DNA from: a virus | Reading direction: 5' to 3' (one strand) | Virus record (IMG/VR): IMGVR_UViG_3300003322_000089 | Coordinates: 1 to 64,000 of that record | DNA: 64,000 nt | Shown here: one piece after another, positions 241-63,329 of the stretch | How positions within the stretch are numbered: the stretch's first letter is position 1 | How the letters are laid out: each line of letters starts with the position of its first letter | Notes under the pieces: generated by a model | The model's input: the letters and a program-made list of their open reading frames with translations, nothing else | The model's database searches: none | What the model was told of the DNA's origin: nothing | Made by a program: the position numbers and the translations under genes

Positions 241-574
241 CAAGAACTCAGAATTAGTGGTAGCACGTACACGAATCTTACCTGACGGCGATATTATAGG
301 GTGGAAAAAATGTGTAGGTGGCGTGATTGTCAAACTACGTGTACCTAACGAAGCAAAAAGAAGTCATGCATTTGGACGTAAGTGCAGGGCCGAATACGCA
401 GATGTACTTGAAGTCTTCAATGGCATTATCGGAATTTCATTGCACGACAAGAAGACTGAATACAAGGTTGGCACAAGGGTCAAACCTGATTCCTTTTCTG
501 AAAAGTGGGGAGAGGAGTGTGCACCAGGAATTCATTTCTATATCACAAGAGAAGAGGCGGAGGCTCACCAATGA
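2..574 (+). CDS. Pentapeptide-repeat protein, 5'-truncated by the window edge, with a ~105-aa globular C-terminal domain
   Basis: The repeat frame (positions 2, 5, ...) runs without a stop into listed ORF 257..574, with TGA at 572-574. The A(N/D)LxX repeat is the canonical pentapeptide motif. Confidence 0.85.
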
Positions 575-888
575 GCAAGTACAATTTCTTTGACTACTAT
601 GTAGGTCCGCGTGGGCCTCACCTTGCAAATCTCACTCAGTACTCACGTACAAAAGAGGATAACAAGGGGAATAAATCCATTCATGCACGTTCTGGTAACT
701 ATACTGGAAAGCAGTATGCACAAGACAAGAATGGAAATCAGCTACCCATTTGTGCCCCGCGTAATCCCAATCGTAAGGGCACATTGGCGAAGGCTTCAGC
801 ACGTCTTGATATCCGTAGGCGTGTCCATGCTGCACTGTCACCATCAGCCGCAATCGCCTATCGTCAACCCGGTTCGATGAAATGGTGA
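571..888 (+). CDS. Hypothetical basic protein (105 aa)
   Basis: Its ATG overlaps the upstream stop (caATGAgc). It is co-directional with its neighbours. It conflicts with the antisense extension of minus ORF 632..1138, which I treat as a non-native read-out. Confidence 0.4.
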
Positions 889-898
889 ATAAGGTTAT

Positions 899-1123
899 AG
901 TGACTGATACAGAACGTGCTGCATCTGCATTCCCAAGAGAACAAAGCCCTTGAACCTCAAGGAGGTATGCATCAGTGATTCCGTTGATAGCCACAATACG
1001 ACGATTAACCTCGAAGTTATCAGCGGCTTTGGATAGATTGGTTGATGCAATATCTGCATCGGTACAACCCGCAAGAAGTGCCAATCCGATTGCAGCACCA
1101 CAGAACATAAGTTTCTTAATCAT
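899..1123 (-). pseudogene. 5' half (75 codons) of a lipoprotein gene, lying on an inverted segment
   Basis: MIKKLMFCGAAIGLALLAGC has a signal peptide plus lipobox (LAGC). GAGAGGG sits 6 nt upstream of the ATG (1123). The homologous part ends at ...ARSVSVT; beyond that the frame reads antisense of gene 571..888. Confidence 0.6.
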
Positions 1124-1299
1124 TAGATACCCTCTCAAATGGCCACAGAAGGCCGTAGAACGCGAAGAAAGCCCCCGGATGGTATCACCCTAGCCGGAAG
1201 CTATGAAAACCTCTGTATGAGGCTGTATGTCAGAAATTGAAGATAGCTTGTGCCACGAGAAAAAGTCCCCATAGGACCCAAATGACAATGGCAGTTACC

Positions 1300-1467
1300 T
1301 GCAAGACTGGTCCAGGACAGTTCAAGAAGTACTTTGTCGGGCTTTCTGACAATGTGACCTATGTGGTGGAACAACTGGAACCAATGCCAGTCAACACATA
1401 CCGCTATCGTGTCACATTCAAACCGTCTGTCATCGCTCCTGATGTCGATGTGAAATTAGGGTTCTGA
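1300..1467 (+). pseudogene. 3' half of the same lipoprotein gene (CKTGPGQFKKYFVGLSDNVTYVVEQL...FKPSVIAPDVDVKLGF)
   Basis: Part of listed ORF 1237..1467. Joined to the minus-strand 5' half it gives a continuous 130-aa protein (...SVSVT|CKTGPG...). From memory this matches the layout of the 'beta-sandwich lipoprotein' family seen in phages and actinobacteria. Confidence 0.55.
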
Positions 1468-3537: not shown

Positions 3538-3775
3538 TTTTCAGGTTGGGGATATTATTGTAAGTCCATCATATACGAGGACTGTACTAAGAATTAATAC
3601 TGATGATAATGGATTACTCTATTGTTCCGTCATATACAATAACGACAAAAGATCGGTGGGCAATGCGACATATGAGTGGACTAATTTCGACTTTCCGGGT
3701 TACGAATTATACCGTCCTTATGCAGAAGCACCATACGATCCAACCCAAGTAGGGGATACAGAAGATGACATATGA
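3494..3775 (+). CDS. Tail-family small protein 1 (ends EAPYDPTQVGDTEDDI)
   Basis: Listed ORF with the conserved C-terminal peptide. Start is uncertain (ATG 3494 or 3506). FQVGDIIV strand motif near the N-terminus. Confidence 0.7.
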   Translation: MYQGMQRIDITGPDSFQVGDIIVSPSYTRTVLRINTDDNGLLYCSVIYNNDKRSVGNATYEWTNFDFPGYELYRPYAEAPYDPTQVGDTEDDI

Positions 3776-3914
3776 AGACAGATTGGCACAAAGAACCATC
3801 GAAGGGTATATTCAGAACTTCAGTGCCCTCAAGAGGGTGATCAAAGAGAAATCGTCATATAAGCCCAAGGAAGAGCTTTTGGGTAAAAGTGGTATCTCGT
3901 ATCGGATTTCATGA
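3765..3914 (+). CDS. Hypothetical small protein (49 aa)
   Basis: Its ATG is embedded in the upstream tail codons (GATGACATATGA), the same overlap pattern as at 4635, 6511 and 8831. Confidence 0.4.
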   Translation: MTYEDRLAQRTIEGYIQNFSALKRVIKEKSSYKPKEELLGKSGISYRIS

Positions 3915-4108
3915 GAAACGCTCTCAGCGAGCTTCTGTGTGTCAAAGAAGGGTATTATAGATGCTGGTGGGGTGGTCTGATTGGACATAGGGCAATAGGT
4001 GTCAGTTGGATCACCTCACATGAAGTACCTACTTGCAGTACTAAACCTTTTGAACTTGGTACTGCAAGAACATACATCAAGAACATACATCAAGAACTTA
4101 ACTATTAG
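3911..4108 (+). CDS. Hypothetical protein
   Basis: ORF with an ATGA overlap. Its 3' part contains a 10-bp perfect inverted repeat and a 13-nt tandem duplication, so it may be partly regulatory DNA. Confidence 0.4.
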   Translation: MRNALSELLCVKEGYYRCWWGGLIGHRAIGVSWITSHEVPTCSTKPFELGTARTYIKNIHQELNY

Positions 4109-4360
4109 TACTATACTAAAGTACTTAAAAATAAAAAAGAACCTAGAGAATTTACTATTGGAATAACCTATAGAACTGATTCTTGAAGTAATTACTAGAT
4201 GTAGTTACTTACAGTAATATACTTAAAGTATGATATTTTATCAGATTTGATTTCTTTTGTCAATAGGTAAATTCCATTGATCTTAGATTTATTTTTGTGT
4301 CCGATCAAGAGGCGATAGCCTCCTCACCCCCAGTTCCGTCCACCCCCCTAGGTTCCAAAG
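4109..4360 (+). promoter_or_regulatory. AT-rich non-coding spacer with TTCTTGAAGTA box, TTGTCAATAGGTAAAT box and a C-rich tract
   Basis: No ORF. It shares the boxes TTCTTGAAGTA (4180-4190), TTGTCAA-AGG-TAAAT (4257-4272) and a C-run element (4322-4352) with the 61.9-62.9 kb hub. Confidence 0.6.
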
Positions 4361-4645
4361 ATGACGACATTTAGAACAACAGATGTCCTTGTGTACAACG
4401 AGGAGTTCAGTGCAGATATGTTTCAACCAAACTTTGGCGACATCAACGATGAGTACGCACTACGTAGATCAAGAGATGTGACATTTAGTGATCGTTCATA
4501 CGGAGAAGAAGAAGGAGACCTCGTTTATGTCCGTAACTTGAGAACTGGTAACGAAGGGCGCGGGTTCTGGTGGAGACTTAAAGTCGGGTACACAAATACT
4601 CCATACGATCCTACTCAAGCTGGAGATACTGCAGATGACATCTGA
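4361..4645 (+). CDS. Tail-family small protein 2 (ends NTPYDPTQAGDTADDI)
   Basis: Listed ORF with the conserved C-terminal peptide. Confidence 0.75.
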   Translation: MTTFRTTDVLVYNEEFSADMFQPNFGDINDEYALRRSRDVTFSDRSYGEEEGDLVYVRNLRTGNEGRGFWWRLKVGYTNTPYDPTQAGDTADDI

Positions 4646-4850
4646 AAGAATGTCGGATCTAACGAAGTTAGAGATATCTGAGGGTGACACTGTGAGACTA
4701 AAGTTCACCAAGAGAAACAAGATGGGATGGCTCCATAGGCTATACGGTCCTGATCTTGTGGTTGACACTATTGTAGGTTCCTTGGTTTATCTGAGGGGGA
4801 TTCCACAACAACACAATGGGTGGTTACGTGACAGATTCGAGAAAGTTTAA
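4635..4850 (+). CDS. Hypothetical protein (G-D-x-V strand motif, no tail)
   Basis: Its ATG lies inside the upstream tail codons (GATGACATCTGA). An alternative GTG at 4690 sits behind GAGGG. Confidence 0.55.
   Translation: MTSERMSDLTKLEISEGDTVRLKFTKRNKMGWLHRLYGPDLVVDTIVGSLVYLRGIPQQHNGWLRDRFEKV
4655..4674 (+). promoter_or_regulatory. Copy a of the recurrent motif GGATYTAACGRAGTTARAGRGG
   Basis: GGATCTAACGAAGTTAGAGA, 10 nt after the stop of tail gene 2. Confidence 0.5.
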
Positions 4851-5082
4851 ATTTGGAGATCGTGTAGTCTACACTGGTGCATACAGTGAGTTCAATACTC
4901 TAAGTGCCATTGGTGAGACTGGTACAGTAAGTTCTATTAATGGCAATCAAGTGAATGTCGTCTGGGATAATATAAGACGGAATGAACTTTTTGGTTATTG
5001 GGGTGTGTACTCACAGAATATAGAACTTGAGTCTAAACCATACGACCCTACTCAAGCAGGGGATACCGATGATGATATTTAA
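4816..5082 (+). CDS. Tail-family small protein 3 (ends SKPYDPTQAGDTDDDI)
   Basis: Listed ORF with FKFGDRVVY motif and conserved tail. Start is uncertain (ATG 4816 or GTG 4828). Confidence 0.75.
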   Translation: MGGYVTDSRKFKFGDRVVYTGAYSEFNTLSAIGETGTVSSINGNQVNVVWDNIRRNELFGYWGVYSQNIELESKPYDPTQAGDTDDDI

Positions 5083-5159
5083 CTTCACGTAGCTCAACTG
5101 GATAGAGCCTCCGGTTTCTACCCGGATGGTTAGGGGTTCGAATCCCTTCGTGAAGGCCA
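5083..5159 (+). tRNA. tRNA-Arg (anticodon UCU), CCA encoded
   Basis: Hand-folded cloverleaf: acceptor CTTCACG/CGTGAAG, D arm GCTC-AACTGGATA-GAGC, anticodon arm TCCGG-TTTCTAC-CCGGA, T arm AGGGG-TTCGAAT-CCCTT, discriminator G, then CCA. Confidence 0.9.
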
Positions 5160-5160
5160 C

Positions 5161-5235
5161 TTTCCTTTCGTTTAATTGGTAAGACGCTGGTCTTTGGTAC
5201 CAGAAATCCATGTTCGAACCGTGGCGGGAGAGCCA
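5161..5235 (+). tRNA. tRNA-Gln (anticodon UUG), CCA encoded
   Basis: Hand-folded: anticodon arm CTGGT-CTTTGGT-ACCAG, T arm CCATG-TTCGAAC-CGTGG, D arm GTTT-AATTGGTA-AGAC. It has U1-A72 and G73. There is one 7:66 mismatch. Confidence 0.75.
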
Positions 5236-5375
5236 ATATGCATTTAAAAGCTCATAGACCGTTCCTACGTCACTCAGGTATGCTCTAAATCGACCATACA
5301 AGGCTGTACAGAGCGTTTCTAGAGTTTTATGATACTAGACACCAGAAACAAGTGAATGCTTGTCAGCGAGGTTAT

Positions 5376-5636
5376 ATGAAAGAAAATTGGGATTATGTAT
5401 CTTTTGAAAATTACTCGAAGGATATGCAAGAAAGCTCAGACAGGGCTTCAAATATAATCCGACAACAGAGAGGGGAGATTGATAGGTTAAATGAGCTCAT
5501 AGCTGGTTTGGTTTATAGTAATCCCAATCATGAAATCCTAATTCCAACTTCAAATCTCGACATAAACGATCTCAAATTAACTGTAAGTTACGATCCATGT
5601 GAAATGAGATACATCTACAAGGCAAATAGGAGATAA
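5376..5636 (+). CDS. Hypothetical protein
   Basis: ORF; ATG 5376 behind AGCGAGG is preferred over the listed GTG 5352. Confidence 0.55.
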   Translation: MKENWDYVSFENYSKDMQESSDRASNIIRQQRGEIDRLNELIAGLVYSNPNHEILIPTSNLDINDLKLTVSYDPCEMRYIYKANRR

Positions 5637-5637
5637 C

Positions 5638-6300
5638 ATGCCTGTAATTCATTCTAGCGTAAGTACTGTATGCACTGCAACTCATCTGACCAACTGGTCC
5701 CTTCCAGGATTTGATAGTGATGATGAGAAAGTCTTGGTGAATGCCAAGCTCAATGAGGTAGACCATCTGATGAAGGCAGGGTTCAAGAGGGACTTTGCCA
5801 TGATGGAAGTTATCGTCACAGAAACTCAGAGATCAAAGTACAAGCTGGATGAGTTCCTTCCGAAGATCGGATTTGAATTCACTCGTACATTCCCCAAGAG
5901 TGACGCAAAGAGCACTCAGCGTCACCAGGAAACAGGTGATCTTCACCTTTGGACCACCACTCCCAAGATCTATGAGAAAGCTCTAAAGGACTACCACAAG
6001 GAACTGACAGAACTCAAGGAGCGTATCGATCCTCCCAAGAAGCCTGATCCCAAGCGTCAGAAGTTCCCTGATCTCCTCTTGAGTGCCCTTCGTAAGGCAG
6101 AGATGGTTCAGAACAATACCTCTGTTAACAACCCCATCCATCAGGTTCTCACTGTCTCTGATGATGTACTCTATCGTCATCTCAAGATGAAGTACGGTAT
6201 TGATATCAAGAAGTGGAATAACCTTGGTGATGCATGGACCAAGATCACCATCCGTCAGTTGAAGCAGTATCAGATGGACTGGAAGGCTGAACTCGTATGA
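5638..6300 (+). CDS. Hypothetical protein (220 aa)
   Basis: Long ORF with plausible composition. No motif recognised. Confidence 0.65.
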   Translation: MPVIHSSVSTVCTATHLTNWSLPGFDSDDEKVLVNAKLNEVDHLMKAGFKRDFAMMEVIVTETQRSKYKLDEFLPKIGFEFTRTFPKSDAKSTQRHQETGDLHLWTTTPKIYEKALKDYHKELTELKERIDPPKKPDPKRQKFPDLLLSALRKAEMVQNNTSVNNPIHQVLTVSDDVLYRHLKMKYGIDIKKWNNLGDAWTKITIRQLKQYQMDWKAELV

Positions 6301-6521
6301 GGACCTATCCTTGTTATCTCCGTTCCAAAGAAAGCGGCAACCTCTACTTCTTTGAAGGGAGAGGTTATGAATGTACTTTTATTGAAACTTCAAGGAATCA
6401 TTCTCAATACCGCTCAGGTCAAAAGGTTGTTATTGGGTACACATCTGAGGATAAGTTCCTGTGGACAGAGGAATCTCCATATGATCCAACCCAAGTAGGG
6501 GACACAGAAGATGACATCTAG
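6297..6521 (+). CDS. Tail-family small protein 4 (ends ESPYDPTQVGDTEDDI)
   Basis: ATGA overlap with the upstream stop. Conserved tail. Confidence 0.75.
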   Translation: MRTYPCYLRSKESGNLYFFEGRGYECTFIETSRNHSQYRSGQKVVIGYTSEDKFLWTEESPYDPTQVGDTEDDI

Positions 6522-7131
6522 TAACAAGGGTAAGGTCTATGTCGTAGGTACAGACAGGAATGTCACCAGTATGTTCTTCGAGAGGGGCTATATGATCACC
6601 CATAGACAGTCAGATGCTGACATTCTTTGTTTCATTGGTGGTGCTGATATTGACCCCAATTTCTATGGACAAAAGAAGAACCCTGTCTTGAATATTAATA
6701 CATCACCCACTTGTGATGCCAGAGATAGTCAGGCTTGGAAACAGAAGACCTCTAATCAATTGTCTGTAGGTATTTGCAGGGGTGGACAATTCCTTTCGAG
6801 TATGTCCGGTGGGAGTATGATCCAGCATGTTGTAGGTCATATGGGAGTCCATAAGGTCTATGATACTGTCTGGAACACAGAGGTACAAGTTGCCTCTTGT
6901 CATCATCAAATGATGGTTCCTGGTCCAGATGCAGAAATCTTTGCCTATACCGAGGATCATGCAAAAGAGGCTTGGGACGATCAAGGAAAGATTGAAGTAC
7001 CCAAGGTAGAACCAGAGGTTATCTGGTACGACAAGACCAAGTGCCTGTGTTATCAAGGTCATCCTGAGTGGAACCCTCAGACAGGTACAGACTATTTCTT
7101 CAATCTCCTTGAGTTGGTTAAGGATTGTTAG
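6511..7131 (+). CDS. Class I glutamine amidotransferase-like / peptidase C26 (gamma-glutamyl hydrolase-type) protein
   Basis: GGADIDPNFYG, nucleophile elbow GICRGGQF, HHQ and GHPEW, in the typical C26/PuuD-like order. Its ATG is embedded in the upstream tail codons. Confidence 0.7.
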   Translation: MTSSNKGKVYVVGTDRNVTSMFFERGYMITHRQSDADILCFIGGADIDPNFYGQKKNPVLNINTSPTCDARDSQAWKQKTSNQLSVGICRGGQFLSSMSGGSMIQHVVGHMGVHKVYDTVWNTEVQVASCHHQMMVPGPDAEIFAYTEDHAKEAWDDQGKIEVPKVEPEVIWYDKTKCLCYQGHPEWNPQTGTDYFFNLLELVKDC

Positions 7132-7133
7132 AT

Positions 7134-7382
7134 ATGAAGTGGAATGTAGGTGAAGAGGTTGAAGTTGTAACCAAGAGGCATGGTGGAAGCCAATTCGGTC
7201 TGATTGGTACTGTAATGAAGAATGACGGCTCTAATTATGGGTCCGGACTAGATCATATAGTGGACTTTGGTGAGATGATCAGGGGTTGCCTAAGAATAAA
7301 TTACTATTCGTACTCCGATCTCCAAACTACTGAGAAACCATATGACCCTACTCAGGTAGGGGATACTGATGACGATATCTGA
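7134..7382 (+). CDS. Tail-family small protein 5 (ends EKPYDPTQVGDTDDDI)
   Basis: MKWNVGEEVEVV start at ATG 7134 (the listed ORF begins at TTG 7125). Conserved tail. Confidence 0.75.
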   Translation: MKWNVGEEVEVVTKRHGGSQFGLIGTVMKNDGSNYGSGLDHIVDFGEMIRGCLRINYYSYSDLQTTEKPYDPTQVGDTDDDI

Positions 7383-7389
7383 TCGTCTT

Positions 7390-7411
7390 GGATTTAACGA
7401 AGTTAGAGAGG
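7390..7411 (+). promoter_or_regulatory. Copy b of the recurrent motif GGATYTAACGRAGTTARAGRGG
   Basis: GGATTTAACGAAGTTAGAGAGG, 8 nt after the tail-gene stop and 9 nt before TTG-TGT of the GAT-II gene. Confidence 0.5.
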
Positions 7412-7420
7412 ATATTTAAT

Positions 7421-8542
7421 TTGTGTGGACATCTAGGAATGATGGGTCCAGGTATTCAACGAGAAGACCTTGCGATCATTAAACAATTGGGTATTGTCTC
7501 TCAGCTAAGGGGACTTGATGGTTCTGGTATCTACCAGACAAGAACTACAAAGTACAATGCCTACTCTCCAAACTACGATCTCCTGTTCAAGACATACAGT
7601 CCATTCTCTAGCATTCTTGATGAGTCGTCTGGACATAATGGGAAGTACAAAGAACTCTTGAACTCTGTGATGGTCGATGTTGTCATTGGTCACGTAAGGG
7701 CTAGTACTCAGGGTGTAATCTCCGATCAGAATGCTCATCCTTTTGAGTTCGATAACATCGTAGGTGCTCACAATGGTACTCTTAAGGATGCTCAGTACCT
7801 CTCTCATCCAGTGAAGACAGATTCTGAATTAATGTTCAAGGATATCAGCAAGAGGGGTATTACTCCTGTTGTAGAAGCTCTGGATAGAGACTCTGCCTTT
7901 GCCATCGTTATGTACGATAAGATAGACAAGCATGTTTATTTTGTCCGGAACGAACTTAGGACACTGTGTTTTGCCTTCATCAAGGACAGAGCAGTCATGT
8001 ATTGGGCGTCTGAACTGGTCATGCTTGAGTATATCCTGAAGAGAAATCACCAGGATTATAGGATTTTCTCTCTTCATGAGAATTATCTTATCAAAATCAA
8101 CCCCAATGATATAACTCTAAACAATAATAAAAAAGAAGATCCTCTTGACATTCTGAAAGTCCATAAGAAACTCGTGCGTCCACTTCCCACCTCATACCAA
8201 AAAGCTAAGGATGAGATGGAACGCAGGAAGAAACTGGAGAAAGAGAAAGAAACCAAGAGTAACTGGACCCCTGATCAGTACTCCTTCGAGTTGAATAAGA
8301 CAAAGGATAAAGGAGGTAAAGTACTCCAAGGAAATTTTCCACAGACCAAAATCAAGAGCAAACCATTCTCAGTGAAGAGTTGCTATACTCGTTGTGCCTG
8401 TGGCAAAACTACTTTGAATTTGTTGGAAACCAATCAGACCCATCGGGGAATTCATCCTAGGTATCGTTACGATAAGTCAGAGAAAAAGATCTATTGTGAT
8501 GTATGTCCAGACAACAAGATCGAGTGCAAAGAGGTGGTATGA
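7421..8542 (+). CDS. Class II (Ntn) glutamine amidotransferase-domain protein with a long C-terminal extension and Cys-rich end
   Basis: TTG 7421 is followed directly by Cys (CGHLGMMG), as required for an Ntn nucleophile. GHVRASTQG and NAHPF motifs. C-terminal CxC...CxxC. Confidence 0.7.
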   Translation: MCGHLGMMGPGIQREDLAIIKQLGIVSQLRGLDGSGIYQTRTTKYNAYSPNYDLLFKTYSPFSSILDESSGHNGKYKELLNSVMVDVVIGHVRASTQGVISDQNAHPFEFDNIVGAHNGTLKDAQYLSHPVKTDSELMFKDISKRGITPVVEALDRDSAFAIVMYDKIDKHVYFVRNELRTLCFAFIKDRAVMYWASELVMLEYILKRNHQDYRIFSLHENYLIKINPNDITLNNNKKEDPLDILKVHKKLVRPLPTSYQKAKDEMERRKKLEKEKETKSNWTPDQYSFELNKTKDKGGKVLQGNFPQTKIKSKPFSVKSCYTRCACGKTTLNLLETNQTHRGIHPRYRYDKSEKKIYCDVCPDNKIECKEVV

Positions 8543-8841
8543 TGAAAAATCCTGCAAGTACGGAGAGGTTGGTTTTTAATGTCGGTGACGAAGTTGAATT
8601 TGTGGGGCGGGTGGGTGATCTCGGCTCTCAGTTTGAGGGTTCTGTTGGGACTATAATTAACCCCTCTGATCCAGCTTGGAAATCTCATTTAGTGTGTTGT
8701 GTTAGATTTCATTCTGGTTCATTAGCTGGAAGAGTATCTACTGGACGACAAGGAGGGTACTGTGTGTATTCAAGACACCTAGCACTAGCATCTAAACCCT
8801 ATGATCCAACCCAAGCTGGAGACCAAGACGATGACATTTAA
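8539..8841 (+). CDS. Tail-family small protein 6 (ends SKPYDPTQAGDQDDDI)
   Basis: ATG 8539 overlaps the upstream TGA, with GAGGTGG upstream. FNVGDEVEFVG motif. Confidence 0.75.
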   Translation: MMKNPASTERLVFNVGDEVEFVGRVGDLGSQFEGSVGTIINPSDPAWKSHLVCCVRFHSGSLAGRVSTGRQGGYCVYSRHLALASKPYDPTQAGDQDDDI

Positions 8842-9079
8842 TGTAGGTGATCGTATAGAGTATTTTAGAGGGAACTCCTTAGCCAATGAGAGGTTCTTTG
8901 GGCTAACTGGGACTATCGTGGGAAAAATGTCGTACGGAATGGTGGCCATCCGGTGGGATCACTATTGTCTAGAAAATATGTATGCAGATACGAGATGTGT
9001 CTGGTCAGTCCATAATATAAAACCACTTATGAACGATTATGATCCTACTCAGGTAGGTGATACTGAGGATGATATCTAA
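8831..9079 (+). CDS. Tail-family small protein 7 (ends NDYDPTQVGDTEDDI)
   Basis: MTFNVGDRIEYF start at an ATG embedded in the upstream tail codons (GATGACATTTAA). Confidence 0.75.
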   Translation: MTFNVGDRIEYFRGNSLANERFFGLTGTIVGKMSYGMVAIRWDHYCLENMYADTRCVWSVHNIKPLMNDYDPTQVGDTEDDI

Positions 9080-9796
9080 ATGACGACAATTAAAATTGGA
9101 TGTGACCCAGAGTCATTCATTGTAGATGGCAAGGGTGATTTTATTCCAGCCATTGGTATTATTCCTGGAGATAAGGAAAATCCATACCCTGTGGATGGTG
9201 GTGCAGTTCAAGTCGATGGATTGGCAGTAGAGTTTAATATTCACCCTGCCGAGACGGCAGATCAGTTTGTTGGGAATATCAAGAAGGTTCTCTACCAGAT
9301 TGATGAGATGATACACTCCTTTGATAAGGACTTTTCCATCAGGCATACACCGGTAGCTACATTCCGTCAGACCATCTGGAATATGGCACCAGAACAAAGC
9401 AAGATCCTCGGGTGCGACCCAGATTATAATGTCAAGGGGGATATCAACGAGAACCCTACAATGAGACTGGAAAATAGTACCATCCGTACTGCTGCCGGTC
9501 ATATCCACATTGGTTGGCTTGATGAACTCCTTGAAGACCCAATGCAGGGAGATCATTTTGAGACGTGCTTGGACATTGCCAATGGTTTCTTCCACGGTCA
9601 TCTATCCACCTTCATTCCTAGTACACAGGAAGAAGAAGAGCGGATGAAATACTACGGTCACAATGGTTCTTTCCGTCCCAAGAAGTATGGTATTGAACTC
9701 CGTGCACCAAGCAACCTTTGGGTTAGAACCGAAGAAACTCAGAAGCTTATCTTCAATCAGACAAGGAAGAAGTTCCATGAGCTTACAGGACTATAG
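9080..9796 (+). CDS. COOH-NH2 ligase, glutamine-synthetase/GCS fold (phage 'type 2' amidoligase-like)
   Basis: N-terminal GCDPESF...G..QVDG.AVEFNI.P pattern plus HIHIG. From memory this matches the phage phiEco32-like COOH-NH2 ligase type 2 family. Not verified. Confidence 0.55.
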   Translation: MTTIKIGCDPESFIVDGKGDFIPAIGIIPGDKENPYPVDGGAVQVDGLAVEFNIHPAETADQFVGNIKKVLYQIDEMIHSFDKDFSIRHTPVATFRQTIWNMAPEQSKILGCDPDYNVKGDINENPTMRLENSTIRTAAGHIHIGWLDELLEDPMQGDHFETCLDIANGFFHGHLSTFIPSTQEEEERMKYYGHNGSFRPKKYGIELRAPSNLWVRTEETQKLIFNQTRKKFHELTGL

Positions 9797-9807
9797 GGAG
9801 TGTAATC

Positions 9808-10089
9808 ATGTTACCGGCCTTTAAAGTTGGTGATGAAGTTGAGTACAGACACCCACATATGGAAGTAAAAGATTTGGATGGTTCTTTTGGATATATAGTG
9901 GCTGTATTTCCCAGAAGATTTCAGGACCCACCTGAAGAAGTTCATCATTATCATGTTAATTGGGAATCTGGTCCTGCTGTATTTCAAAAAATATATACTA
10001 GTAACACTCGATGGGGAGAGCCTGTACTACATCTGTCAAGTAATACATATGATCCCACTCAAATGGGTGATACTGATGAAGACATCTGA
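9808..10089 (+). CDS. Tail-family small protein 8 (ends NTYDPTQMGDTDEDI)
   Basis: FKVGDEVEY motif and conserved tail. Confidence 0.75.
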   Translation: MLPAFKVGDEVEYRHPHMEVKDLDGSFGYIVAVFPRRFQDPPEEVHHYHVNWESGPAVFQKIYTSNTRWGEPVLHLSSNTYDPTQMGDTDEDI

Positions 10090-10110
10090 AAGAATGTTCT
10101 AGAGGGTAAG

Positions 10111-10731
10111 ATGAAACAACGTTGGAAAGGTGATGATGTTAAGGCTCGTCTCCATGGGACCATCATCAGATATAAGAGCCATCCGTACCTCTGTGGAGTA
10201 GACGGACATAGCATTAATCTAATCGATCTCCAGACTGGTAGTACAGTTGGTACTGTGGACAGTGACGATGATCTCCTTGATGTATCTAGTGTACCTCTTG
10301 GCTATGTGAATATTGTCCACCCTGATTACAAACTTTGTGTTTATCTCAAGCGTGACCCTCTTCGTAGGTTCAAGCAGGGTGTAGAAGTAGATATCCTCAC
10401 TCAGAAGATCCTAAGGGATGGTTGGAGTCCTATCAGCAGGGATATTATTCGTTCCAAGTCTCTTGTTGACACAATTCTTGGACGGTTCCCTTCATACAAG
10501 GAGGCTCTGGATTTCATTACGAAGAAGGGTTTCCATTCTGTGGCTTTGAGTAGAGACATTGCTCTTAAACGGGAGGGTGAACTCCTTAAAGTATATCTCA
10601 AAGAGTCTGAAGTTGGGTACATTCGACTTGGTACTGACAGGGTGATTGTCCCCAAGACAGACCAGAGCTACTATCACATTCTACTTCTAGAAGATCTCCA
10701 TGGTTGGGAAGTAATCGAGGGTTCAAAATGA
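10111..10731 (+). CDS. Hypothetical protein (206 aa)
   Basis: ORF with GAGGG upstream. No motif recognised. Confidence 0.65.
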   Translation: MKQRWKGDDVKARLHGTIIRYKSHPYLCGVDGHSINLIDLQTGSTVGTVDSDDDLLDVSSVPLGYVNIVHPDYKLCVYLKRDPLRRFKQGVEVDILTQKILRDGWSPISRDIIRSKSLVDTILGRFPSYKEALDFITKKGFHSVALSRDIALKREGELLKVYLKESEVGYIRLGTDRVIVPKTDQSYYHILLLEDLHGWEVIEGSK

Positions 10732-10991
10732 GAAAAGAAGTAGTTCCAGGAATTTATGATGGTGATGAGCTAGAGTTTGTAGGTAATGCTCCTAGCTGGA
10801 TTAAGGACAGTCCCATTAGGGCATTCTACTCAGAACTGTACACACAGATGAGGTCACATTACATTACTATACGAATCGGCGGAATGAGTTACAATCCCGA
10901 TGATTGTCATTCATACTCTGCTAAAGATCTTAGACTTAAAGAACAACCATATGATCCGACACAAGCAGGGGATACCGATGAGGATATTTAA
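10728..10991 (+). CDS. Tail-family small protein 9 (ends EQPYDPTQAGDTDEDI)
   Basis: ATGA overlap with the upstream stop at 10728 (the listed ORF begins at 10704). Conserved tail. Confidence 0.75.
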   Translation: MRKEVVPGIYDGDELEFVGNAPSWIKDSPIRAFYSELYTQMRSHYITIRIGGMSYNPDDCHSYSAKDLRLKEQPYDPTQAGDTDEDI

Positions 10992-11013
10992 CCCCCGTAG
11001 GAGGGTCTTCATT

Positions 11014-11035
11014 GAATCTAACGGAGTTAGAGAGG
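11014..11035 (+). promoter_or_regulatory. Copy c of the recurrent motif (GAATCTAACGGAGTTAGAGAGG)
   Basis: Lies between tail genes 9 and 10. Its GAGAGGG end serves as the SD for ATG 11043. Confidence 0.5.
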
Positions 11036-11042
11036 GTGACAT

Positions 11043-11309
11043 ATGATTGAAGTTGGTGATTATGTAGAATACTGCTTTGAGGGGTATGGGAACGAGCGTT
11101 ATCATGGAAGTATAGGAAGAGTTCTAGAAGTTAGAAATTACTACGGATACAGTGAATACCAATGTGCAGTATTTTGGGAAAGTGGTCTACTTTCTGAACA
11201 CGAAAGTTATAAAACCCCAAGACTATTCTGGGACAGAACCATCAAGAAGGCCTGCGTTAATAGAGATTACGACCCCACACAGATGGGTGACACTGAGGAC
11301 GACATTTAA
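11043..11309 (+). CDS. Tail-family small protein 10 (ends RDYDPTQMGDTEDDI)
   Basis: IEVGDYVEY motif and conserved tail. Confidence 0.75.
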   Translation: MIEVGDYVEYCFEGYGNERYHGSIGRVLEVRNYYGYSEYQCAVFWESGLLSEHESYKTPRLFWDRTIKKACVNRDYDPTQMGDTEDDI

Positions 11310-11318
11310 GGATTTAAA

Positions 11319-12347
11319 ATGAATCAGATTGTAAATGTTTATGATATTCTAAAGGCTCAGACCAAGTTCTCTGGTGATCGTCATCATGGTGAATTTGGTG
11401 TGGAGATCGAGACTGAGACAGAGAAGTCTTATGAATACCCCAAGATGAAATTCTGGAACACAACCAAGGATAATTCCTTGCGTGATTGGGGTGTGGAATA
11501 TGTTCTCAAGGCTCCCATGAACCTTCCTGAATTTGAGAAAGCTCTTGAAGAATTCTCCATTTGTGAGAAGAAATACAAGTTTAGGAATGGATCTATCTCT
11601 ACCAGTGTCCATGTCCATATTAATTTTCAGAATGATACCTTCTTGACATTGGCAAACTTCTGTACTGCCTATGCATTGGTAGAGAATCTTCTGATCAAAT
11701 ACTCTGGACCAGACCGGTTGAGTAATCTTTTCTGTCTTCCGATGTGTGATGCAGAGGGTGTTGTCTCCAATATTGTTAACCTATTGTCATTTGTCAACAG
11801 GAATATGTATGCCAAGGTTCCTGGATCAGTGTCAGTAGACAGGTGTAAGTATGGTGCACTCAATCCAGCACCTATTACCACACTAGGAACTCTCGAAGTT
11901 AGATGTTTCAGGGGTGAGACAGACTCCAAAATCATCCAACGATGGGTAGAAATCATCAAGAAACTGAAGGATTTTTCTCGTAGGGAGGGCTTGACACCAC
12001 CAGATATCCTCAAACTCTGGAAGGAAAACAAGGCTACCATCGTCGATATCATCTTCCAAGAGTATGCAAGTGACCTTAAGTATAAGGAAACTGATGAACT
12101 GATTCGTAAGAATTTGAAGTATGCAGCAGATATTGCTTGTGTTTCCAAGACTTGGGATAAATTCGGTATCCTTAAGATCAAACCTGTCTATAAGGAAGTG
12201 GCTAAGGACAAGTTGGACAGGATCTCCAATGATATGTTCCAGAGGCTCTACGATTCCCTCAACTACCATGAGCGTATTGCAGTGGCAGAGAAGTATCAAG
12301 CAATGAACCCTACAACAAGAATCGTGGATCTAAATGACGATATCTAG
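11319..12347 (+). CDS. Putative amidoligase (Amidoligase_2-like, GS fold); ends in VDLNDDI
   Basis: GEFGVEIETE and STSVHVHI motifs, typical of the 'putative amidoligase enzyme' family (from memory). The acidic C-terminus resembles the tail. Confidence 0.6.
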   Translation: MNQIVNVYDILKAQTKFSGDRHHGEFGVEIETETEKSYEYPKMKFWNTTKDNSLRDWGVEYVLKAPMNLPEFEKALEEFSICEKKYKFRNGSISTSVHVHINFQNDTFLTLANFCTAYALVENLLIKYSGPDRLSNLFCLPMCDAEGVVSNIVNLLSFVNRNMYAKVPGSVSVDRCKYGALNPAPITTLGTLEVRCFRGETDSKIIQRWVEIIKKLKDFSRREGLTPPDILKLWKENKATIVDIIFQEYASDLKYKETDELIRKNLKYAADIACVSKTWDKFGILKIKPVYKEVAKDKLDRISNDMFQRLYDSLNYHERIAVAEKYQAMNPTTRIVDLNDDI

Positions 12348-12354
12348 TATCGTT

Positions 12355-12374
12355 GGATTTAACGAAGTTAAAGG
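12355..12374 (+). promoter_or_regulatory. Copy d of the recurrent motif (GGATTTAACGAAGTTAAAGG), followed by an orphan tail-end relic
   Basis: Located 8 nt after the amidoligase stop. 12371-12390 (AAGGATGATATCTAAATGAC) matches 9065-9084 at 19 of 20 positions. Confidence 0.5.
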
Positions 12375-12385
12375 ATGATATCTAA

Positions 12386-13186
12386 ATGACAATTACAGCA
12401 ATCTTTGCTTATGCAAACTACTCTGAAGGTGCTAATGAGCTAAAGACAGCTCTTGGTGTCCCTAAGATCAAGCACACAGGTTCCAAGTTTAAAGCAGCTC
12501 CCACCAAAACTATTCTTAACTGGGGGGCTACGACAGATAGGTTCCCTGAAGAATACAATAGATGCAATGTCATCAATAAGCCTCAGAATGTCGATCTTGC
12601 AGTAGATAAGAAGAAGGCATTCCGTAAATTCAGAGAACATGGAGTATCTATTCCTGAGTTCACAGAGGACAAGGAAACTGCTACCCAATGGCTTGAAGCA
12701 GGGCAGATGGTCTTTGCTCGTACTAGACTCCATGATCATAGCGGTCGCGGTATCGTCATCATGGACCCTGAATTTCCTGATACTTGGGAAGTAACGGCAG
12801 AACTGTTCGTCAAATACGTTCCCAAGAAAGATGAATACCGCATCCATGTTCTCAATGGACAGATCATCGACATTCAGCGTAAGGGTCTTCGTGCAGAGTT
12901 GAGAGGTTCTGAGGGTATCAACTATAAGATCAGAAATCTTTCTAACGGTTTCATCTATGTCCGTAACGATAGTAATGAGACCCCCCTGATCTCTTCTGCA
13001 TCAGTCCCTCAGATTGTCAAGGATGTGGGTATTGCAGGTGTTCAGGCACTGGGTCTTGACTTTGGTGCTGCCGATGTAATCTACAATGAGAAATCTCGTA
13101 GAGCATATATCCTTGAGGTCAACAGCGCGCCGGGCCTAAGTGGCTCTACTGTAACCAACTATGCAGAGGCATTTGGACGGCTATGA
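12386..13186 (+). CDS. ATP-grasp ligase (RimK-like)
   Basis: Size and motif layout of RimK-type ATP-grasp enzymes: FARTRLHDHSGRGIV, KYVPKKDEYRIHV and ILEVNSAPGL. Confidence 0.7.
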   Translation: MTITAIFAYANYSEGANELKTALGVPKIKHTGSKFKAAPTKTILNWGATTDRFPEEYNRCNVINKPQNVDLAVDKKKAFRKFREHGVSIPEFTEDKETATQWLEAGQMVFARTRLHDHSGRGIVIMDPEFPDTWEVTAELFVKYVPKKDEYRIHVLNGQIIDIQRKGLRAELRGSEGINYKIRNLSNGFIYVRNDSNETPLISSASVPQIVKDVGIAGVQALGLDFGAADVIYNEKSRRAYILEVNSAPGLSGSTVTNYAEAFGRL

Positions 13187-13458
13187 GAATCCAAGATTAT
13201 CCATTTGAACCTATTACTAAAGATACTGTACTATCTGTAGGTGATATCTTTTATGAAAATAATTATCAGTATTATATTACTTACATTGATGACACAACTT
13301 TCAGATACATAGCCAGTAGTTTTATTCATGATTGGACTGGTAAAGAAAGTACTAGTCAATTGAGTTCCATTACAAACTCTAATGGATACTTCAAGAAAGT
13401 AATCTTTGAAAGACCCTATGATCCCACCCAAGCGGGTGACACAGACGACGATATCTAA
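13183..13458 (+). CDS. Tail-family small protein 11 (ends ERPYDPTQAGDTDDDI)
   Basis: ATGA overlap with the ATP-grasp stop. Conserved tail. Confidence 0.75.
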   Translation: MRIQDYPFEPITKDTVLSVGDIFYENNYQYYITYIDDTTFRYIASSFIHDWTGKESTSQLSSITNSNGYFKKVIFERPYDPTQAGDTDDDI

Positions 13459-13475
13459 TTAAGGAATTAATAACA

Positions 13476-14615
13476 GTGTGTGTGATTCTCCATCTATCTG
13501 CTGGTGCTACTATCAACAAGCGTCAACTCTATAACGCTGTACATAACAATTGGCATGGCTTTGGTCTAGTTCTTAAGGACCAGAATAATCGTATCCAACT
13601 CACCAAGGGCTTCAGGGAAAACGGTACTGACCCTGAAGAGATCTGGAAGCTTCTGGAAGATAACAAAGATATCGAACGGTATCTTCATGTCCGTCATTCC
13701 ACTCGTGGTGCACCAGATGATACCAACGTTCAGCCCTTTGAAGTTTACAATTCCAATGAACGTCAGATCTTCTTCATGCACAATGGCACCCTATCCTCAT
13801 TTGGAGGGGCGTGGAACAACGATCAGGGAAAGAGTGATACACTAGAGTTCTGCGAGAAGATTCTCTCCCCCGCCCTTCTACGTTGGTCTGGTGCCAATGG
13901 TAAAGCTGACTATACCGATGAAGAATTCTTTCGTCTGGTAATGGAAAAGCAGTGGTCATCTGGCTCCACTGGTCTGTTCGTTTCCAACGATCTTGAACCC
14001 AGACGTATTGGTGCTGGATGGTCAGAATACAAACACCCAGATGACACCAGTAGTGGTACTGTCTGGACTTCCAATACTTCCTATTTCGATAGGGTTCAGC
14101 GTGGGCCTGAATTTCAAAGGTTGGAAGCAATCAAGAAAGCAGAGGAAGAGAAGAAAAAGGAGGAGATGAACTCCTTAGTCCCTTTCGACCAGACGAATGC
14201 GAAAACCAGATCGAGTATTATGCAAGAATGGGGTGGGGGTCCGAATGGGCATACTACAACTACTGAAGTCCTGAAGTTTAATGCCAGCAATCTTGCCAAG
14301 TCTCCAAAAGTCCTTAAGGCTCTCTCTGATATTGTTAACACTTGGGACTTTGAAAATCCTGAAGACCTCCAGAAGCTCCGTTTTGTTGCATATGATGAAT
14401 GGATCAACTTCATTGACAGTGAAGGAGAGTGGGCTGTAGCTGCATTCATTGAGCATCTTACTCACCATTATCATGACATGTTCTTCAAGAATCTTGCTCT
14501 TATCGAGATGGTAAAGAAAGCAGAAACAAAGCAGAGGAAGGCAGAACAGCATATTTCCAACCTAAAGCAAATCACTTTGGAAAAGAATCCTGTAGGTAAA
14601 AATGAAGCTGCGTAG
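13476..14615 (+). CDS. Class II (Ntn) glutamine amidotransferase-domain protein, second copy
   Basis: GTG start followed directly by Cys (MCVILH). HVRHSTRG, NVQPF and HNG motifs. The C-terminal half is K/E-rich. Confidence 0.7.
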   Translation: MCVILHLSAGATINKRQLYNAVHNNWHGFGLVLKDQNNRIQLTKGFRENGTDPEEIWKLLEDNKDIERYLHVRHSTRGAPDDTNVQPFEVYNSNERQIFFMHNGTLSSFGGAWNNDQGKSDTLEFCEKILSPALLRWSGANGKADYTDEEFFRLVMEKQWSSGSTGLFVSNDLEPRRIGAGWSEYKHPDDTSSGTVWTSNTSYFDRVQRGPEFQRLEAIKKAEEEKKKEEMNSLVPFDQTNAKTRSSIMQEWGGGPNGHTTTTEVLKFNASNLAKSPKVLKALSDIVNTWDFENPEDLQKLRFVAYDEWINFIDSEGEWAVAAFIEHLTHHYHDMFFKNLALIEMVKKAETKQRKAEQHISNLKQITLEKNPVGKNEAA

Positions 14616-15201
14616 TGCAAGAAACTCGTATGATATCATCGGTACATCTGCCAAGAATACTCCAGACTGGATGGACCTAAAGAAATCTGCATATGATGAA
14701 TTCCTTGTCTTTGTAGTTGGTAACACTCGTAGGTATAGATCCAGGTCTGCCCTTATGGAGGGTGCCAACTATTATGGTGAGGGTGTAACATTCGATGATA
14801 ATTATATTATGAAGAGATCAATGACAGCGGCTGGAAATAAAAACCCGGAACCACTGTTGTTCACATTTGATAAGGTTAAGAATTGGAATGATTTTAAACC
14901 CATCTTCCGTAGAGAACATTTAAAGCATATCGAAGGTGATGTATACGGTATCCCACTCCGAAAGCTTGCTCAACTCGATCAATATGAAGGTAATGGAGAT
15001 TTCATCACCAGAATTTCCAGATGGGTAAAACTCCTTCATCCCAAACAAGAAGGTACTACTGTTAAAGCATGGATGTGGGTAGTGGACACTGATGCTTGGA
15101 TGGAATGTTATTCGGGTGGAAATGAACTCAATCTTTGTAACACTATTAATCATATGGTAGGTCCAGAAAAGGAGTCCTTCAATGCCTACTACTTTGCATA
15201 A
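14602..15201 (+). CDS. GGCT/AIG2-like protein, divergent second copy
   Basis: LVFVVGNTRR replaces YGTL. VYGIPL...LDQYEGNGDFITR matches the catalytic-Glu segment seen in 3127..3537. Confidence 0.5.
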   Translation: MKLRSARNSYDIIGTSAKNTPDWMDLKKSAYDEFLVFVVGNTRRYRSRSALMEGANYYGEGVTFDDNYIMKRSMTAAGNKNPEPLLFTFDKVKNWNDFKPIFRREHLKHIEGDVYGIPLRKLAQLDQYEGNGDFITRISRWVKLLHPKQEGTTVKAWMWVVDTDAWMECYSGGNELNLCNTINHMVGPEKESFNAYYFA

Positions 15202-15496
15202 ATATGACGGTGATGATTACGAATATGTAAGCACCAAAGATATTCTTGTTGGTGATATTGTTATTCACAAATCTTGGTTAGCAAATGCAGGGTCTAAGAT
15301 AACGTATGAGATTGTCTATAATAATCCACAAGAAGAGAGGATCTACGGTATTGATCCTAGATGGGATAGCAGATCAAGAAACTCTGACTATAGATGGAAT
15401 TACAGTAGTAACTTCGGATACACTGGGTGGCTACGTAAAGTAACTGAGTATCCTTACGACCCAACACAAATGGGAGATCAAGAAGATGATATTTAA
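15182..15496 (+). CDS. Tail-family small protein 12 (ends EYPYDPTQMGDQEDDI)
   Basis: ILVGDIVIH motif and conserved tail. Confidence 0.75.
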   Translation: MPTTLHKYDGDDYEYVSTKDILVGDIVIHKSWLANAGSKITYEIVYNNPQEERIYGIDPRWDSRSRNSDYRWNYSSNFGYTGWLRKVTEYPYDPTQMGDQEDDI

Positions 15497-15806
15497 AGAT
15501 CTGGTACTTTCTGAATTTAAATCTTGGGATGAGATCCTTCTTGGAGATAAACTTGTCTGGTGTAGAGATGGTAAAGTTTTGTATGATTACTTAGTGTCTT
15601 TTGAAAGATTAACAGACTATGAGATGTTTGGTTCTAATGAAATAGGAGACCCAGACGATGATGATGACTATGATAGTGAAGGAGACGGATGGAGTAGAGA
15701 CATTTATCCGACAAAAAGTTATTCCATGATTTGTGGTTGGATGAAGGTGGTGGAAGAAGTTCCATATGATCCCACACAAATGGGAGATCAAGAAGATGAT
15801 ATTTAA
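15486..15806 (+). CDS. Tail-family small protein 13 (ends EVPYDPTQMGDQEDDI)
   Basis: Its ATG is embedded in the upstream tail codons (GATGATATTTAA). Conserved tail. Internal poly-Asp stretch. Confidence 0.75.
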   Translation: MIFKDLVLSEFKSWDEILLGDKLVWCRDGKVLYDYLVSFERLTDYEMFGSNEIGDPDDDDDYDSEGDGWSRDIYPTKSYSMICGWMKVVEEVPYDPTQMGDQEDDI

Positions 15807-16122
15807 TCTAGGTGATGTAGTAGAGTATACCAATAAGAAGTATAAGGCAGATATGATTGGGTATATCATTGCCTATGAGGGTTCCTATGTTTGTGTAGAG
15901 ACTCTCAGTGGTGATAGTGGGTGTACACAAGAAAAGTCTTGGTTCTGGAAGAATGAACAGAGTGATTATCTTTCTGACAGATTTGAGCAACTGGGTTTTG
16001 CAAGTGGGTATACTTCGAAGAGTGATAAATGCCAATGGATTCCTAAGAGGTCTCGTAACCTCAAGCAAGCAATAAGAGAATACGATCCTACACAAGCAGG
16101 GGATACCGATGAGGACATTTAA
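15796..16122 (+). CDS. Tail-family small protein 14 (ends REYDPTQAGDTDEDI)
   Basis: MIFNLGDVVEY start at an ATG embedded in the upstream tail codons (the listed ORF begins at 15766). Confidence 0.75.
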   Translation: MIFNLGDVVEYTNKKYKADMIGYIIAYEGSYVCVETLSGDSGCTQEKSWFWKNEQSDYLSDRFEQLGFASGYTSKSDKCQWIPKRSRNLKQAIREYDPTQAGDTDEDI

Positions 16123-16402
16123 GATCATCGACTATTTTGCTAACTTGTTCTATGGAAAGATATATAAAAAGAAATTTAATATTGGAGACCGAGTTAGATA
16201 CAAGCCAACAAAAGCATTCTGGCAAAACCTTACTATCATAAAGTATGACTTCTGTTATAATGGTAAATGGTGGATTGTAGCCGAAGATACGGATGACCCA
16301 AGTTATAGAAAGATACCTGTTGAGGAACACAGTCTGGAACTTGTCTGTGTAGAACATCCTTATGATCCCACTCAGATGGGTGATACAGATGAAGACATTT
16401 AA
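16109..16402 (+). CDS. Tail-family small protein 15 (ends EHPYDPTQMGDTDEDI)
   Basis: Its ATG lies inside the upstream tail codons (GATGAGGACATTTAA). FNIGDRVRY motif. Confidence 0.75.
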   Translation: MRTFKIIDYFANLFYGKIYKKKFNIGDRVRYKPTKAFWQNLTIIKYDFCYNGKWWIVAEDTDDPSYRKIPVEEHSLELVCVEHPYDPTQMGDTDEDI

Positions 16403-30732: not shown

Positions 30733-30856
30733 TGAGCCAGTAGATCTTGATGAACTTGCTAGACTACACGTAGAGTATCAATCCTATTTGGATGATCTAG
30801 AAGAGTATGAAGAAGACGAAGATATTGAAGATAGTTATGAAGAGGAAGATGAGTGA
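30710..30856 (+). CDS. Small highly acidic protein (48 aa)
   Basis: Translated by eye. Its stop overlaps the GTG start of the RNR gene (GTGA). Confidence 0.35.
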   Translation: MNGIMEPNEPVDLDELARLHVEYQSYLDDLEEYEEDEDIEDSYEEEDE

Positions 30857-31786
30857 ATCTAGAAAATAATATTTTGAGTCAGATCGTTGTATTTAGTAAA
30901 TATGCACGTTATGATAAATCGCTGAAGCGTCGTGAGTCTTGGGAAGAGATCTGTTGGCGTAATGCTGAAATGCACATGAAAAAGTATCCAGATATTAAGA
31001 TGGATATCTATAATACGTATCTTAATTACGTGATCACAAAGAAGCTCCTACCATCTATGAGAAGTCTTCAGTTTGGGGGTAAAGCAATTGAACGTAATCC
31101 TGCTCGTATCTATAATTGCGCTTATCTTCCAGTTGAGCACCCGGATGCTTTTAGCGAGACTATGTTCCTTCTCTTGGGTGGTACAGGAGTTGGTTACTCT
31201 GTTCAGTACCGCCATGTTAATAAACTTCCTGTTGTATCTGGACCAAAAGAACGTACTAGACGTTATGTTATCGGAGATAGCATCGAAGGTTGGGCAGATG
31301 CTGTAAAGGTTCTGGTAGAATCGTATTTCTACAATAAGGCACAACCGATCTTTGATTATGGAGACATCAGAGATAAGGGTACAGAGCTAGTTACATCTGG
31401 TGGTAAAGCCCCAGGTCCAGATCCGCTTCGTGTATGTCTGGCTCAAGTAGAGTCTGTACTTAATGGTGCAGTAGGACGTAGACTAACCCCGTTAGAGGCT
31501 CATGATATCCAGTGCTTCTTGGCAGATGCAGTCCTTGCAGGTGGTATTAGACGGGCTGCCATGATTTCTTTGTTCTCTCCAGAGGATGAAGATATGATGA
31601 CTTGTAAGAGTGGCAATTGGTGGGAACTTCACCCACAGCGTTCTCGTGCTAATAATTCTGTTACACTACTCAGAGGTTCTGTTTCTAAGGAAGAGTTTGA
31701 TAAAATCTGGGAACGAGTTAAAGCATCTGGAGCTGGTGAACCAGGTATTTATTGGACGAACAATCTTGATTGGGGTACTAATCCGT
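30853..31786 (+). CDS. nrdJ: Ribonucleotide reductase, class II-like, exon 1
   Basis: N-terminal YARYDKSLKRRESWEE and GGTGVGYS motifs. Ends at ...GTNP + T, immediately before the catalytic Cys codon. No beta-subunit gene is present in the window. Confidence 0.75.
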
Positions 31787-62900: not shown

Positions 62901-63195
62901 AACAGTAGGAGTTTATTATTTGTCCGATACTGGATTAGTTCTGCGCGTAGTGCATAGCAGATATGCAAAATTGTCTATATTCTTGGATGACAGTTGTGGT
63001 AATCTCTAATCATCGAAAGGGAGGAAACAAACTTTCGAGAAACCTGGTACTGAGAGGGTCTGATCCGTATCTTGCTAGGAGTGTCCAATCAAAACAAGCC
63101 TTCTGCAGGGCGATTGGAGAAGCCATGAGTAGGACTGCAGACTGAGGACTTAGAAGTGTTCTTAGCGAATGGGAAAACTGCCAGAAAGGGGATTA

Positions 63196-63327: not shown

Positions 63328-63329
63328 TG

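Follow-up and report, generated by a model that had tools for sequence, protein, structure and literature searches.

The stretch of DNA analysed here (the window, 64,000 nucleotides) makes up the greater part of a phage contig of 67.4 kb from a metagenome. Near its beginning, the two halves of a lipoprotein gene lie on opposite strands, next to a small gene at 571-888. Table 1 lists the features of the locus. The N-half starts with an ATG at 1123-1121 on the minus strand, preceded by the ribosome-binding site GAGAGGG at 1136-1130. It encodes MIKKLMFCGAAIGLALLAG followed by the lipobox cysteine, and its last residues are ...ARSVSVT, at 901-899. Beyond 899, its frame crosses the antisense of gene 571-888 until it is stopped, and the whole minus-strand ORF is 163 aa long when counted from the ATG or 168 aa when counted from an upstream TTG. 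The C-half reads CKTGPGQFKK...DVKLGF on the plus strand, and its first residue is the invariant Cys of the motif ...T-CKTGPG (here and below, the hyphen marks the break). When 899-1299 (401 bp) is flipped in silico, a gap-free protein of 130 aa is obtained.

Table 1. Coordinates of the split lipoprotein gene, its junctions and the neighbouring gene.
Feature	Position	Strand	Remarks
Gene 571-888	571..888	+	Intact, 105 aa, P0121
Read-through tail of the N-half ORF	632..898	-	88 codons antisense to gene 571-888, stop 634-632
N-half of the PF25682 lipoprotein gene	899..1123	-	Signal peptide, lipobox LAGC (Cys20), mature residues 21-75
Left junction microhomology copy AGTGACTG	899..906		Breakpoint 898/899
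DNA formerly 5' of the lipoprotein gene, within the inverted segment	1124..1299	-	
Fortuitous AGGA and ATG ahead of the C-half	1273..1299	+	AGGA at 1273-1276, ATG at 1282
Right junction microhomology copy CAGTTACC, reverse complement GGTAACTG	1292..1299		Breakpoint 1299/1300
C-half of the lipoprotein gene	1300..1467	+	Residues 76-130, stop at 1465-1467

Much of this layout had been set out in an earlier note on the same DNA. The signal peptide, lipobox and 55 further residues that it placed on the minus strand from 1123 to 899 are found in the sequence and in the ORF, and the other half is read from 1300 on the plus strand as it described. Its proposal that inverting 899-1299 fuses both halves in frame into 130 aa agrees with the Pfam profile PF25682 (Phage_VG64), which the fusion covers almost from end to end. 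The 168-aa ORF with an unrelated C-terminus is also there, provided that it is counted from the TTG; the tail of this ORF, which the note had considered as an alternative C-terminus, matched no second domain in Pfam.

The membership in PF25682 can be evaluated for each part separately. Profile positions 3-77 are covered by the N-half ORF (E 9e-25, 87.3 bits) and positions 69-127 by the C-half ORF (E 3.6e-20, 72.4 bits). The fusion matches positions 3-127 of 127 (E 3.2e-49, 166.4 bits, against a cutoff of 27), and it also matches PHROG 478 (E 3.4e-49). The halves are complementary parts of one PF25682 protein, with neither gap nor overlap beyond an 8-nt microhomology. A search of 5.8 billion proteins with the reconstructed 130-aa protein returned thousands of collinear homologues, with at least 7,960 matches among the 8,000 candidates scored; the closest of these candidates, a protein of 129 aa, covers 99% of the fusion at 81% identity. 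Intact homologues align with the fusion without gaps through the conserved motif ...VS(I/V)T-CKTGPG.... Several of them are named 'beta-sandwich lipoprotein' by NCBI or UniRef, and so the family name and the order of N-half then C-half, both given in the earlier note, are in agreement with the profile, the collinear homologues and the database names. Members of this family are normally a single contiguous ORF of about 125-135 aa. Because its halves sit on opposite strands, the locus in the window is a disrupted member of the family, that is, a pseudogene.

No paper was found in the literature with the family name and the Pfam and PHROG identifiers, NCBIfam gave no match for any form of the lipoprotein, the PDB sequence search gave none, and Foldseek against the PDB gave none below E 0.1. 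The protein is spread widely. At 125-130 aa, it shows 55-66% identity across the best-matching phages of seven host genera (Mycobacterium, Corynebacterium, Streptomyces, Paenibacillus, Rhizobium, Erwinia and Vibrio; examples are L089 229-615 and L090 256-639). At the DNA level, the gene has about 74% identity over about 120 nt with 165-kb phages of Providencia and Morganella.

The window is from an uncultured SU10-like podophage which looks strictly lytic. We scanned 72 ORFs from the ORF list (most of them at least 80 aa) and four further short ORFs against Pfam. Matches were obtained to SU10-type portal and adaptor proteins, terminase, lysozyme, a family-A DNA polymerase, DnaB/primase, ThyX and ribonucleotide reductase. 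HNH and LAGLIDADG endonucleases were also found, together with a set of amidoligase, glutamine-amidotransferase and gamma-glutamyl enzymes. The plus strand carries the genes from 257 to 35565, and the minus strand the structural block at 35641-61911. As a minus-strand piece, the N-half thus stands isolated, and the fused gene would be co-directional with its neighbours, as the earlier note had stated.

Three other features were observed in this genome. The first is a group of fifteen small plus-strand ORFs (76-125 aa) at 3737-16402 with a common C-terminal tail, (P)YDPTQ[VAM]GD[TQ]xDDI-stop; they end at 3775, 4645, 5082, 6521, 7382, 8841, 9079, 10089, 10991, 11309, 13458, 15496, 15806, 16122 and 16402. 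They are interleaved with genes which Pfam assigns to amidoligase, class-II glutamine amidotransferase, Peptidase_C26 and GGACT. Another gene among them, 12386-13186, has no Pfam match, and by its sequence the product resembles a RimK-type ATP-grasp enzyme. This arrangement suggests that the tailed ORFs may be a substrate family for C-terminal peptide modification. None was found in the fragments of the relatives L001 and L006 described below. The second feature is a ribonucleotide reductase (30853-33531) that seems to be split into two ORFs, 30853-31806 and 32569-33531, with a LAGLIDADG_2 endonuclease ORF (31821-32555) between them, which is probably an intron or a mobile insertion. The third is a stretch of about 2 kb (61912-64000) which is almost free of ORFs and lies beside the small and large terminase genes. 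It may hold the genome ends, an origin or non-coding RNAs. A gene-poor stretch of about 2.3 kb is likewise present in L001 (1439-3736), and also in L006.

The C-half is preceded by AGGA-N5-ATG (1273-1284), from which a 61-aa protein is predicted, consisting of MTMAVT and the C-half, with no signal peptide. Since this start happens to precede the C-half, gene callers report the 61-aa fragment: the exact protein is on record from JGI and Logan, and on Logan contig L003 a gene is called at 115-300, the equivalent of 1282-1467 of the window. The protein collection does not contain the 163-aa minus-strand ORF, and we infer that callers drop this ORF on account of its 257-nt overlap with gene 571-888. 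Within 1124-1299, a terminator-like hairpin is found on the minus strand at 1279-1263, which in the ancestral orientation would come directly after gene 571-888. This segment showed no match in Rfam, no resemblance to the DNA ahead of the intact gene in L001 or L006, and no motif repeated elsewhere in the window. No sigma-70-like promoter was found on either strand within 500-1700.

Gene 571-888 itself ends in ...PGSMKW, a motif which its two distant homologues P0122 and P0123 share at their C-terminus (P0122 with one more residue, I). The left breakpoint is 10 nt past its stop and is intergenic, as the gene keeps its native C-terminus. The antisense frame which the N-half enters is free of stops for 84 codons. 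An open stretch of such length in the antisense frame occurs in 0.8% of comparable stretches of the genome, and the corresponding frame contains six stops in each of two homologues of the gene. We treat the open frame as a coincidence, and we return to it below. To the left, positions 1-574 hold the end of a long pentapeptide-repeat array followed by a DUF5758 domain, after which comes gene 571-888. The pair of pentapeptide/DUF5758 gene and small gene also occurs in an otherwise unrelated contig (L004, from ENA, 414-1483), which points to a mobile two-gene cassette that ends where the inversion has its left breakpoint.

At the two junctions, the earlier note had pointed out an inverted microhomology coding for Val-Thr. 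It is real: in inverted orientation, 6 of 8 nt match between AGTGACTG and CAGTTACC. A 6/8 match was obtained by chance in 0.48% of 200,000 random pairs of positions 401 nt apart, although the significance is weaker than this P of about 0.005 for a fixed register because the breakpoints were partly chosen by that same homology. Such a match is of the kind left by illegitimate recombination, and it falls well short of the sites used by recombinases. With the segment turned back, the junctions would read ...AAGGTTAT/GGTAACTGCC... and ...TATCAGTCACT/TGCAAGACTGG.... Two other pairings were tried and rejected. The inverted repeat 897-913/1212-1228 (13/17) was considered as a recombination site, and a flip between its arms leaves the gene unrestored. 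In the register AGGTTA, 892-897 against 1295-1300, the fused protein would have two more residues (SVTITCK) than every homologue.

How the gene is arranged elsewhere was surveyed in close relatives and across the family. Two relatives, one a 50-kb Logan contig (L001) and the other from JGI 3300046507 (L006/L009, 68,964 bp), are syntenic with the window, and in both the lipoprotein gene is intact and lies on the plus strand. The gene order common to all three covers the region downstream of the lipoprotein locus and the surroundings of the terminase. The N-half is 80% identical at the nucleotide level to L001 8891-9037 in reverse orientation, and for the C-half the identity is 86%, to L001 9065-9240 in forward orientation, so that a single relative, P0001/L001, is the closest to both halves. 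Upstream of the gene, the genomes differ: L001 has a Ro60/TROVE gene and a Y-RNA-like sequence, whereas the window has the pentapeptide-repeat/DUF5758 gene and gene 571-888. In L001 (6807-8845), and also in L006 (8040-10000), the Ro60/TROVE protein is followed by about 480 nt of non-coding sequence and then by the intact lipoprotein gene. This non-coding stretch contains tRNA-like modules, and in L001 a sub-threshold match to YrlA, a Y-RNA-like RNA, was obtained at 8693-8795 (34.6 bits, E 8e-6).

For the whole family, 80% or more of the protein is matched collinearly in 823 of the 932 phage records with the gene, and in none of the 932 was a second place of the gene found on the opposite strand. 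Among the 80 closest IMG/VR loci, the halves are adjacent on one strand in every case and on opposite strands in none. With 0 of 932 records and 0 of 80 loci, the possibility that homologues are normally separate genes on opposite strands, which the earlier note had raised against its own reading, receives no support. It was also found that the exact fused protein, as it would be encoded by the un-inverted allele, is absent from about 15 billion proteins; we conclude that this allele is not in the collection, as its 90% cluster would then rank top and the best match is only 81%. An exact 41-mer of the C-half has no match in IMG/VR, the JGI metagenomes or the GTDB genomes. Because this 41-mer also lies in the un-inverted allele, that allele is absent from these three collections too. 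A blastn search of 400-2400 against the INPHARED phages gave no close relative, and a search of IMG/VR with both flanking genes found no relative either.

The same gene is broken in other phages. In Vibrio phage 1.250.O (L007 1501-1909), the lipoprotein match falls in two pieces and the sole CDS annotated is a 67-aa 'membrane lipoprotein', which suggests from the sequence a frameshifted gene. In the Mycobacterium phages Piper2020 (L008 1001-1757), DocMcStuffins and Awesomesauce, the mobile element MPME1 lies inside the lipoprotein match. As it is also disrupted in these viable, cultured phages, the gene is dispensable. The lesions are an insertion in the mycobacteriophages and an apparent frameshift in Vibrio phage 1.250.O, whereas that in the window is an inversion.

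We next consider the state of the two halves. In comparison with L001, the mature N-half has a dN/dS of 0.078 and the C-half one of 0.077, and in our count from a three-way alignment the lineage-specific substitutions in the window show no excess over those of the relatives. As neither half has decayed by either measure, the inversion is recent, although the absence of decay equally fits a gene still under selection. The AlphaFold2 model of P0001 (pLDDT 83) has one helix and five strands, and the break, between T74 and C75, falls in the middle of strand 70-78. The invariant cysteines C60 and C75 (P0001 numbering) land on separate fragments.

The explanation which we consider probable is a recent, fixed, microhomology-mediated inversion that inactivated an accessory lipoprotein gene. 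A spontaneous 401-bp inversion of 899-1299 would have taken along the 5' upstream region, the ribosome-binding site, the signal peptide and the first 75 codons, and its inverted form would now be dominant in the sequenced population. The route may have been illegitimate recombination, a template switch or two breaks whose ends were joined again, with the short inverted microhomology CAGTyACy used at both ends. One copy would be inside the gene, in its Ser-Val-Thr codons, and the other, by chance, in the intergenic sequence 10 nt past gene 571-888. The outcome would be a balanced inversion in which the coding sequence lost no base. Judging from the fold and topology, the gene is likely to be inactive. 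The 5' half could at most give a lipid-anchored fragment of 55 residues with 88 antisense-derived residues attached, and the 3' half would have no export signal. Neither half should fold, because the break is inside a core beta-strand and parts two invariant cysteines. The phage presumably tolerates the loss because the gene is dispensable.

This explanation has close parallels in spontaneous microhomology-mediated inversions that pseudogenise non-essential genes of phages or bacteria. In such events, as in the window, the inversion is balanced and has two junctions, one copy of a short inverted microhomology of 6-8 nt is kept at each junction, the change is private to one lineage, and the target is an accessory gene that other lesions have broken in other phages. 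Nothing essential differs; the sole oddity of the window is the long open antisense frame, since a stop-free run of 84 codons, seen in 0.8% of comparable stretches, is not predicted by pure accident. Of the three options left by the earlier note, it is the fixed disruptive inversion which we favour; the switch finds no support, and the artefact is unlikely in view of contig L003.

The artefact would mean that the real phage has an intact plus-strand gene, and that the inversion arose from chimeric molecules, such as those formed in MDA, or from a mis-join in assembly. The source is indeed a metagenome contig (the entry for P0121 is one JGI contig of 67,409 bp), and the left junction 898/899 is covered by this contig alone. 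Exact look-ups of gene 571-888 and of the 163-aa and 168-aa chimeras returned nothing, so that the left junction has no independent contig and a small probability of an artefact remains. The right junction is spanned by the Logan contig L003 (SRR1926122), whose 1636 nt are 100% identical to 1168-2803 of the window; a literature search on this SRA run found nothing. Assembler k-mers are all longer than 8 nt, and an imperfect repeat of that size is too short to mislead a k-mer assembler. As for MDA, its chimeras are single junctions. They and the rearrangement in the window are both inverted joins at short complementarity, but MDA chimeras come with deletions and do not dominate coverage, whereas the inversion here is balanced and one of its junctions is in a second assembly. 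Most of the MDA chimeras described by Lasken and Stockwell (2007, PMC1855051) are inverted joins, primed at a complementarity of 2-21 nt, which resembles the 8-nt microhomology, but they carry intervening deletions, and here there are two junctions with no base of the gene lost. The un-inverted fused protein, which an intact gene would encode, is not in the protein collection either. We thus regard an artefact as unlikely.

An inversion that is real and brought no loss is quite improbable. Here the 163-aa product would be a new functional protein overprinting gene 571-888, and the 61-aa C-half may function as well. The open antisense frame would suit such a protein, given its rarity and the six stops in each homologue of gene 571-888, and so would the AGGA-N5-ATG start of the C-half and the signatures of purifying selection in both halves. 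However, the dN/dS signal is dominated by the history before the inversion and the open frame is a post-hoc observation. The 88-residue tail matches no family and is carried by no second genome, the break splits a beta-strand and the conserved cysteine pair, and neither strand of 500-1700 yielded a sigma-70-like promoter.

A programmed switch, the phase-variable reading of the earlier note, fares worse and we consider it very improbable. A site-specific recombinase would flip 899-1299, giving the full-length lipoprotein in the ON state and a truncated or chimeric product in the other, which amounts to a 'partial intergenic inverton'. Intergenic, partial-intergenic and intragenic invertons of Bacteroides were used for comparison (bioRxiv 10.1101/2023.03.11.532203), and surface and exported proteins are their typical targets. 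The geometry is like that of the programmed invertons of the Hin/Gin/Cin serine-invertase, FimB/FimE and Bacteroides systems: the 5' end is inverted relative to the 3' end, and a flip restores an exported surface-type protein. In the window, the ribosome-binding site and the 5' half would both be part of the invertible piece, its flip would restore a perfect ORF, short inverted homology is present at both ends, and neither half has decayed. Unlike these systems, the window has no substantial inverted repeat, no recombinase, no second orientation seen and no conserved layout. The boundary repeats of invertons are typically longer than 10 bp, but the junction repeat here has 8 nt, of which 2 are mismatched, and none of the longer inverted repeats of the region is found at both junctions. 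The earlier note had seen no invertase in the window, and our Pfam scans of the 72 and four short ORFs agree: the ORFs scanned across the 64 kb gave no match to a resolvase, invertase or integrase domain; about 3.4 kb of the 67.4-kb contig lies outside. The phage also looks strictly lytic. The split architecture does not recur in L001 or L006, in the 932 phage records or in the 80 IMG/VR loci; the ON-state protein is absent from the 15 billion proteins, and the Logan contig crosses the right junction unbranched. A reversible inverton served by no recombinase of the phage, in which a host or unrecognised enzyme acting at a minimal CAGTyACy site alternates between the full-length and the chimeric lipoprotein, would, if true, explain the unusually open antisense frame, but is hardly to be expected.

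Finally, the family carries a name that probably does not fit it. PHROG 478 and RefSeq label it 'site-specific recombination directionality factor RDF'. Such a factor is a cytoplasmic protein which acts on an integrase-DNA complex, whereas the fusion begins with a signal peptide and a lipobox, and the window has no integrase. The lipobox Cys is invariant among 120 homologues, and the lipobox reads LSAC in Mycobacterium phage Amgine gp53 and LTAC in Paenibacillus phage PG1. Whether the phage infects Proteobacteria, Firmicutes or Actinobacteria, the members keep the export signal and the lipobox. Because members from Proteobacteria, Paenibacillus and Mycobacterium phages have both, the label is very probably wrong as judged from these sequences, and it looks like an annotation carry-over.

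The inversion has value for annotation, as gene callers see a 61-aa PF25682 fragment beside 400 apparently empty bases, and the recent inversion that we favour explains the locus. The split gene also exposes the conflict between the RDF name in PHROGs and RefSeq and the conserved lipoprotein signal. A true switch, if borne out, would be a rare case of phase variation in a lytic phage. As a recent and fixed inversion, the event in the window is a further instance of the dispensability of a very widespread phage lipoprotein.
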